Shown one piece after another: positions 54,722 through 55,115 of a DNA stretch of 64,000 bases. Numbering within the stretch: position 1 is the first letter of the stretch; the number at the start of each line of letters is the position of its first letter. Below the pieces are notes generated by a model. The model was given only the letters and a program-made list of their open reading frames with translations, made no database searches and had not been told where the DNA came from. Source of the DNA: Octopus vulgaris (taxonomy: Eukaryota); assembly GCA_951406725.2 (NCBI GenBank), contig OX597819.1:15996001-16060000 (forward strand), read 5' to 3'. Position numbers and translations under genes: made by a program.

Positions 54722-55115
54722 GCCCACGGGCATATGGCTTAGCGGTTAAGAGCGCGTGCAACTAACCCTAAGATTCCGAGTTCGATTCCAAGCAGTGACC
54801 TGAATAATAATAATAATAATAATAATAATAATAATAATAATAATAATAATAATAATAATAATAATAATAATAATAATAATAATAATAATAATAATAATAA
54901 TAATAATAATAATAATAATAATAACAATAATAATAATAATAATAATAATAATAATAATAATAATAATAATAATAATAATAATAATAATAACTTCGAAAAA
55001 TACCTTAGGAATGAGAACGCAGGTTCGAAATTTCCCCAAGACACCTGATGAAGTGATGAAGACTGGAAGGTATATCAGCTGAAACGTTGTGTTAACAACA
55101 AACAAGATGAGGATA
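54722..55115 (+). mobile_element. PLE terminal repeat: tRNA-like head + (AAT)n + HHR
   Basis: A box TGGCTTAGCGG, B box GTTCGATTCC, ~190-bp AAT tract, HHR at 55040-55093 (with an 8-nt internal duplication). Confidence 0.75.

Follow-up and report, generated by a model that had tools for sequence, protein, structure and literature searches.

The window analyzed here, i.e., the whole 64-kb stretch G000:C6:15996001-16060000 of an octopus genome of 2.8 Gb in 227 contigs, contains at 54722-55115 a tRNA-like A box and B box followed by an (AAT)n tract and a hammerhead, which raises the question as to whether such a module is a repeat in its own right or part of a larger retroelement. The module was confirmed by direct sequence reading, as was a second copy (14686-15826), the head of which begins 23 nt past the stop codon (14660-14662) of an ORF; over 56 aa, the end of this ORF, previously described as GIY-YIG-like, shares 84% identity with the GIY-YIG C-terminus of the family. 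The partial copy noted at 53963-54100 does exist as a copy of the tail, but it lies on the minus strand and most probably represents the inverted 5′ partner belonging to the insertion at 54721-55113, since an inverted piece of the element was found directly upstream in 63 of the 82 comparable units. Both ends of the copy at 54721-55113 (+25 and +29) fall unusually short. The exact 29-nt B-box/AAT word had 489 matches, and the reversed control word had none.

Table 1. Features read in the window around the two tRNA-like heads (positions in the 64-kb stretch).
Feature	Positions	Strand	Remarks
5′ leader, with short palindrome at 54721-54732	54721-54734	+	5′ boundary shared across the family, -14/-13 relative to the A box; putative transcription start
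tRNA-Arg-like head	54728-54802	+	A box 54735-54745, B box 54780-54789; spaced as in a tRNA, with a decayed cloverleaf
(AAT)x63 tract	54803-54990	+	Length and unit differ among copies; often hit by later insertions
Start of the PLE ORF, ATG 55011-55013	55011-55113	+	Frameshifted by an 8-nt duplication; homology ends at 55113, 25 nt past the GUU site
Minimal type I hammerhead, no stem III loop	55040-55093	+	Core 55045, GAAA 55081-55084; damaged copy
Predicted cleavage after 55088; GUU triplet 55086-55088	within hammerhead 55040-55093	+	
Inverted 5′-truncated copy (hammerhead tail and ATT tract)	53963-54105	-	Probably part of the same insertion as 54721-55113
Family D element (about 556 nt and (TTA)x19) in the ATT tract	54106-54717	+	98.6% identical to 33679-34241
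Inverted 3′ end and tail piece at the front of the second insertion	14369-14436	-	Read directly
3′ end of the PLE ORF (GIY-YIG C-terminus), stop 14660-14662	14448-14662	+	Homology to the family C-terminus
Head of the ORF-linked copy and start of the AAT tract	14686-14769	+	A box 14699, B box 14733; distance between them reduced by an internal deletion
Helitron-like insertion in the AAT tract	14770-15671	+	
Remaining AAT tract, ORF start, dead hammerhead	15672-15826	+	Ends 53 nt past the cleavage site

The AAT tract is an insertion hot spot: the Helitron-like insert (14770-15671) and the family D element (54106-54661) are both located inside AAT/ATT tracts, as the sequence-only reading had stated. 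The former starts with TC, ends in CTAG, and has a subterminal hairpin and an A/T insertion site, hallmarks from which we take it to be Helitron-like; its unique ends had no match in 600 kb of random sequence of the genome.

Other repeats were observed in the same surroundings. Family D is a non-coding element of about 556 nt with a (TTA)n end, inserted in ATT/AAT tracts. It is young, several copies showing 97-99% identity (54106-54661 and 33679-34241 in the window; L159, L163, L177, and L140), and it was matched in 11 of 60 random 10-kb stretches and is carried by three of 13 heads lacking a tail; we assume from the target preference of Dong/R4-type LINEs that it may be a passenger of these elements. 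LINE fragments with a CCHC/REL-like endonuclease region are also present in AAT tracts (34359-34736 in the window; L268, L282, L290, and L379), and the decayed LINE fragments at 26278-27230 and 50756-52309 look L1/Tx1-like and CR1/RTE-like by eye. The unit of the spacer microsatellite has been switched to GAA, AAC, or GAT in some copies (L183, L155, and L016). A second abundant tRNA-headed repeat (28901-29030 on the minus strand and 13310-13400 in the window; L161:9973-10000) has a different body and a related A-box region, and its head could have a common origin with that of the module.

The tRNA-like head and the Penelope-type ORF

The head carries the tRNA-like A and B boxes typical of SINEs. 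Among the 10 tRNAs tried, its best match was the tRNA-Arg(TCT) of the genome (52 identities, z 8.2), the scores with Cys(GCA) (z 7.7) and Arg(TCG) (z 7.6) placing Cys close to Arg. A better head copy reached 16 bits on the Rfam tRNA model, below the cut-off of 29 bits, over positions 8-63 and with several broken pairs: the two boxes and their spacing have been kept, and the acceptor and T stems have decayed. Rfam and ARAGORN, when run on the window, called neither the hammerhead nor the head. Seven tRNA-Cys-like genes, two of them with changed anticodons, were seen clustered in 3 kb at another locus (L221).

The claim that the head is integral to the element was borne out by 30 loci selected by endonuclease-coding DNA. 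The head occurs just past the stop codon in 27 of them, and in the other three the ORF is joined to the tail by a deletion; four of the 30 (the C31 loci L033, L038, L039, and L048) are duplicates, and after merging these, 24 out of 27 have the head. Identical insertion structures were observed at several places (these C31 loci, L019/L029, and L267/L270), which suggests that they were duplicated with their segment or carried along within larger repeats. Starting from the head, 24 of the 26 distinct head-selected loci have a tail within 1.5 kb, and among 92 B-box-selected units (from the first 90 of the 489 word matches), 79 have a hammerhead tail within 760 nt; most of the 13 tail-less heads have family D or LINE-like sequence in their AAT tract. 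The family is present in organisms A-F, and contigs bridge the end of the ORF and the head in B, C, E, and F.

Since 27 of the 30 endonuclease-selected copies carry the head after the stop codon, the module is not an independent SINE. The idea that a tRNA SINE landed repeatedly beside PLE hammerheads draws on the abundance of tRNA SINEs in this genome and on the different tRNA-head family seen in the window (29006 and 13310), but it is largely refuted, and must be deemed extremely improbable, by the fixed position of the head 23 nt past the stop in ORF-selected copies, the same ORF-head junction in four other organisms, and the tail present in 79 of the 92 units. Nor does the head have its own TSDs, which the sequence-only reading had named as what an independent SINE would show: nothing systematic was detected in 14 non-inverted solo copies (mean shared word 5.1 nt, versus 4.5 nt in mismatched flanks), one of which has an 11-nt flank match.

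That the upstream ORF belongs to a PLE, as had been supposed, was established by an RT match in Pfam (RVT_1, E 2.7e-6) and by a GIY-YIG region at the C-terminus with CCHH-type cysteines. A Pfam match to GIY-YIG was obtained on the homologue P0069 only and on none of the family copies; four short family fragments matched 0 families in Pfam, and a sequence search of the PDB gave 0 matches. The translations read show no extra Zn-finger between RT and EN, unlike Neptune/Nematis, which are set apart by this feature in the available part of PMC8557442. Judging from this predicted anatomy, the element is an EN+ PLE of the Penelope/Poseidon type. The homologues found numbered 2989, few of which are named.

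The full unit, the reconstruction of which had been suggested as a check, was built by script as a majority unit of 2658 nt (with 5 AAT), to which the copies are about 90% identical. It is organized in the order head, (AAT)n, ATG (at nt 119), hammerhead, RT, GIY-YIG, and stop codon, followed after 23 nt by the start of the next head, so that the head and the AAT tract make up nearly all of its non-coding sequence. The ORF has 838 codons, begins 105 nt after the A box, and carries the motifs DKG, YVDD, and YSIPCSCG in this order. It opens upstream of the hammerhead and reads through it, a frame which is also seen in natural copies (L098, L101, L118, L124, and L129), and the N-terminus encoded by the hammerhead occurs in the related proteins P0003 and P0149 as well. 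Since the hammerhead lies within the ORF, the unit is the leader of an autonomous element and not, as the sequence-only reading had it, a separate SINE/retrozyme hybrid. One natural locus (L105) begins inside an upstream head, spans the entire ORF, and reaches the following tail. No intact ORF and no intact young copy was found among the 150 frames listed, the longest of which are 569 and 559 aa.

Other PLEs were noticed in the course of these searches: a young Neptune-like family (L251-L253) with many identical copies, intact 753-aa frames, and frequent inverted pairs, and AT-rich (21-33% GC) PLE-like families (L246-L249 and L254-L262) with intact frames of 820-860 aa and Asn-rich linkers consisting partly of AAT repeats.

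Ends of the copies, hammerhead, and copy number

The 5′ ends of the 92 B-box-selected units, counted from the first base of the A box, fall inside the head in 31 cases, at -26 to -1 in 51, and farther upstream in 10, the latter running into upstream PLE sequence and including two duplicates. Among the 51, 41 end at -14 to -3 and 10 at -19 to -26, the extra letters being, by eye, inverted-copy (fold-back) sequence. Of the 61 units reaching the A box, 51 thus stop there, when 12% would be expected from the rate inside the head. In an independent set of 61 units, for which sequence 3′ of the cleavage site was the sole basis of selection, 18 start in the tail, 11 start in the AAT tract or are broken there, and 32 reach the head; 17 of the 22 units passing the A box stop at -24 to -2. 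The same boundary is a top loose end in the DNA contigs of organisms E and C. A palindrome is located at this boundary and favors fold-back junctions; a palindrome is also present at the GUU site, around which seven of the 18 tail-truncated units start (-12 to +5), and this weak cluster may come from the palindrome as readily as from cleavage in vivo. Alu and B2 SINEs start 12-13 nt before their A box. The fact that most copies begin just before the tRNA head, where a Pol III transcript would begin, suggests a Pol III-like start and hence that the element likely uses a Pol III promoter.

At the other end, it had been proposed that the unit cleaves itself at the GUU site before being copied. 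Only one of the 79 units with a tail ends there (-5 to +10), and 74 run at least 45 nt past it: the 3′ ends lie at +46 to +71 in 44 units, at +87 to +104 in 29, at +122 in one, and elsewhere in four, and the 3′-selected set is equally bimodal. Since 73 of the 79 end 46-71 or 87-104 nt past GUU, the copies were not made from self-cleaved RNA, and since 29 carry a tail of ORF sequence and some extend deeper (+122 and +206), the templates continued into the ORF. In vitro, the RT of the anole element PAc is described as starting, mainly on uncleaved RNA, at two internal sites bounding the tail, and its hammerhead as dispensable (available part of PMC11167929). The sequences analyzed here likewise do not support a role of the hammerhead in making the 3′ end of the copies.

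The three hammerheads in the window are all damaged, that at 55045 by an A-C mismatch in stem II as well as a duplication of 8 nt, that at 15736 by the loss of two core bases, and that at 53965 by the loss of one. The majority hammerhead folds as expected, with the core, stems I and II, and a self-complementary half of stem III; among 142 copies, the core is intact in 89 and the core and stems in 42. The covariation previously read in stem II (GGCTG/CAGCC at 54000 versus GACTG/CAGTC at 15744) turned out to be a matter of chance: the pair is GC in 105 of the 142 copies, AC in 18, GT in eight, AT in one, and something else in 10, the sole AT pair is the copy at 15744 itself, about 1.2 such pairs are expected under independent mutation, and no compensatory stem changes were found over the 142 copies. 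Within the core, variation is highest at N7 (T 102, A 38), its only free position, and this is consistent with the masters having a working ribozyme without being proof of it.

In 60 evenly spaced 10-kb stretches searched with a shortened head, nine insertions with a tail, one head only, and one ORF fragment were found, which extrapolates to some 47,000 insertions, with Poisson limits of roughly 22,000 and 86,000. One of the 10 insertions is ORF-linked, and most copies are therefore solo, which bears on the count of solo versus ORF-linked copies that had been called for. Head-to-tail solo arrays with units of about 240 and 330 nt (L006:840-1890; L067/L086) were present in two of the 26 distinct head-selected loci and in none of the 10 random insertions; their junctions join a +59 end to a -15 start, and the units of L006 share private changes.

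These solo copies might be masters transcribed by Pol III and spread in trans by the enzymes of the PLE; they would then amount to a PLE-dependent SINE or a non-LTR retrozyme, as in the sequence-only reading but without 3′ cleavage. Their predominance, with five of 61 units running upstream of the head region, the two arrays (L006 and L067), and the T:A ratio at N7, which is 83:9 in the solo and 11:20 in the ORF-linked sample, all lend themselves to this explanation. We nevertheless consider it improbable, since 29 of the 79 copies, and the deeper ones still more, have ORF sequence in their tail, the array junctions do not lie at the GUU site, and the N7 difference is confounded by the different ways in which the two samples were picked. 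It may rather be inferred that the solo units are internally primed cDNAs of the leader.

Transcription of the element

Pol III stops at runs of at least four T (T4). The majority unit contains 13 TTT and no T4 in its 2658 nt, and T4 is present in at most 7% of the covering copies at any position; shuffling the synonymous codons of the majority ORF gives an expectation of 2.9 T4 (P = 0.027). The absence is not significant under order-1 and order-2 Markov nulls (P 0.09 and 0.24), and G4 is also absent (P = 0.29). Other PLE families of the genome have 3.2-11 T4 per kb, a composition-matched family has 8-10 per ORF, and two or more were counted in 44 out of 45 related ORFs, which come from 79 metagenome loci and have a minimum length of 400 codons; the two natural near-intact ORFs of the family have three and one. 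The one exception among the 45, which is also the closest relative found (L296, WLWD01002751.1; 48% identity), has a T4-free ORF, no tRNA head, T4 runs in the UTR, a pyrimidine-rich 3′ UTR beginning with (ATT)n, and a minimal hammerhead, and L298 has one T4 in 1977 nt. Low T4 may be a lineage trait, because the headless L296 is T4-free and L298 nearly so, and the absence of T4 is at best suggestive of Pol III transcription. A B box near L296 was rejected as a head, since it lies inside the ORF of L296, and avoidance of Phe is a weak signature of Pol III here, three conserved Phe having been lost and seven gained (Phe is slightly low, at 2.6% versus 3.3%).

In two unstranded RNA-seq runs from organism C (X23 and X24), about 6% of which was read, the mates were balanced and no peak of starts or ends was observed. 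The depth ranged from hundreds to thousands over the pseudo-LTR (pLTR) and was near 10 over the ORF, and 78-79% of the reads run on into unlike sequence, i.e., they come from copies embedded in other transcripts. No GT-AG intron joint was found among 15 of the 29 RNA joints.

Taken together, the module is the pLTR front of an autonomous PLE of the Penelope/Poseidon type, the head being the likely Pol III promoter, from which the template RNA would begin some 13 nt ahead of the A box. We infer that the cliff in the 5′ ends corresponds to the 5′ end of this RNA. The tRNA piece might also be a passive relic, i.e., a SINE or tRNA fragment in the pLTR, Pol II acting via a TATA-like word or the host by read-through, and the cliff being a Pol II start or an RT stall with fold-back at the palindrome. 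The TATA-like word, which overlaps the stop codon some 28 nt upstream of the boundary, is equally compatible with Pol II, fold-back junctions are common (63 of 82 units), the ORF of L296 is T4-free without any head, and in L101 and L123 sequence of the ORF end precedes the upstream head; the PLE promoters known to date reside in the pLTR and yield Pol II transcripts that are spliced, as far as described in the portion of PMC8557442 at hand. Against this explanation, which we therefore regard as rather unlikely, it can be said that the cliff is also seen in units without an inverted piece (by eye, about 10 end at -14 to -1, eight inside the head, and six beyond), that the A and B boxes and their spacing have been kept though the acceptor and T stems have decayed, that the head and AAT tract are nearly all the non-coding sequence of the unit, and that the RNA joints inspected include no GT-AG intron.

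If the head is the promoter, RNA would start at the head of a tandem or partial-tandem master and run on into the ORF. The protein of the element, translated either from this RNA or from Pol II read-through, would nick AT-rich DNA, and the RT would start within uncleaved RNA, about 59 nt past GUU at one site and about 99 nt at the other, as is the case of PAc in vitro. Copying back to the 5′ end of the RNA would give the common solo unit consisting of head, (AAT)n, and hammerhead, often with an inverted 5′ piece, and the rarer long templates would give rise to the copies with an ORF; formation of the 3′ end would not depend on the hammerhead. More tentatively, and we would not presume it at present, the autonomous element may have exchanged Pol II for a captured tRNA promoter, Pol III transcribing the 2.7-kb unit, free of terminators, in full into an RNA that serves as template and also as uncapped message; the tens of thousands of SINE-like solo copies would then be a by-product, and this could be one route from PLEs to hammerhead SINEs such as Sm-alpha.

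To our knowledge, autonomous retroelements are not expected to use a tRNA-type (Pol III) promoter. If the Pol III-type start is true, the element will provide a test case for Pol III driving an autonomous element and for the translation of uncapped PLE RNA. The 3′ ends support, on genomic grounds and for a second lineage, the model in which PLE reverse transcription is primed internally, and bear on the role of the PLE hammerhead, which would not be that of forming the 3′ end, and the solo copies suggest that part of the tRNA SINEs annotated in such genomes are in fact the leader of a PLE. The tRNA-headed PLE is real and present in high copy number, and its reading as a Pol III-driven autonomous retrotransposon, which has indirect support, is testable.

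Comparison with known systems

No description of a tRNA-headed PLE was found in the openly accessible literature searched; Repbase, Dfam, or SINEBase may already list the solo unit as a SINE, and the repeat libraries of PMC13282606 could hold this PLE family. The octopus SINEs OK, OR1, and OR2 (Ohshima and Okada 1994) are also tRNA-derived repeats; OR1 differs in being described as a CORE-SINE. An origin from tRNA-Arg is reported for OR1/OR2. In SINEs, moreover, the head is not shared with the autonomous partner and the copies have an A-rich or simple-repeat tail and TSDs, whereas here 27 of the 30 ORF-selected copies carry the head, the 3′ end is double as in PLEs, and no systematic TSD is present.

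The element shows the hallmarks of a pLTR, namely a minimal type I hammerhead, tandem and inverted insertions, and an optional tail of 30-40 nt. As far as can be judged from the available portions of the sources, it shares with PAc of Anolis and Penelope of D. virilis the single ORF with RT and C-terminal GIY-YIG and the pLTR with a minimal type I hammerhead (PMC11167929; PMC8557442), an ORF start overlapping the hammerhead region and two 3′ ends about 40 nt apart (PMC11167929), and 5′ truncation with inverted and tandem pieces (PMC11167929; PMC8557442). It differs from them in that its pLTR consists mostly of a tRNA-derived A/B-box head and a microsatellite, its 5′ ends are concentrated 13-14 nt upstream of the A box, and its majority unit has no T4 and no intron was seen.

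The metazoan non-LTR retrozymes resemble the solo copies in their pLTR-related hammerhead monomers, occasional arrays, and dependence on PLEs (bioRxiv 10.64898/2026.07.22.740005; PMC7761336, both in part). They are described as having no promoters in the portion available of PMC7761336, and the word "tRNA" does not occur in the main text of the bioRxiv paper; in the octopus, arrays are rare (two of 26 head-selected loci) and the ends are not formed as in retrozymes, one of 79 3′ ends lying at GUU. In Schistosoma, the repeats Sm-alpha and Sj-alpha likewise have a Pol III-type promoter followed by a hammerhead and a high copy number, but are described, in the parts consulted of PMC6765202 and PMC2770079, as non-autonomous and processed by cleavage of multimers, whereas the octopus module is part of a protein-coding element, the copies of which end elsewhere than at the cleavage site.

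Pol III promoters in retroelements have been described for non-autonomous ones, i.e., SINEs and the TRIMp3 elements Cassandra, Helenus, and Ajax (PMC10886601, accessible part). The latter have a small-RNA-derived Pol III promoter in their terminal repeat, for which an origin by SINE insertion was proposed, and their autonomous partners are argued to need Pol II (ibid.). The TRIMp3 are, however, non-autonomous LTR elements, whereas in the octopus the tRNA head is located in the autonomous element itself.
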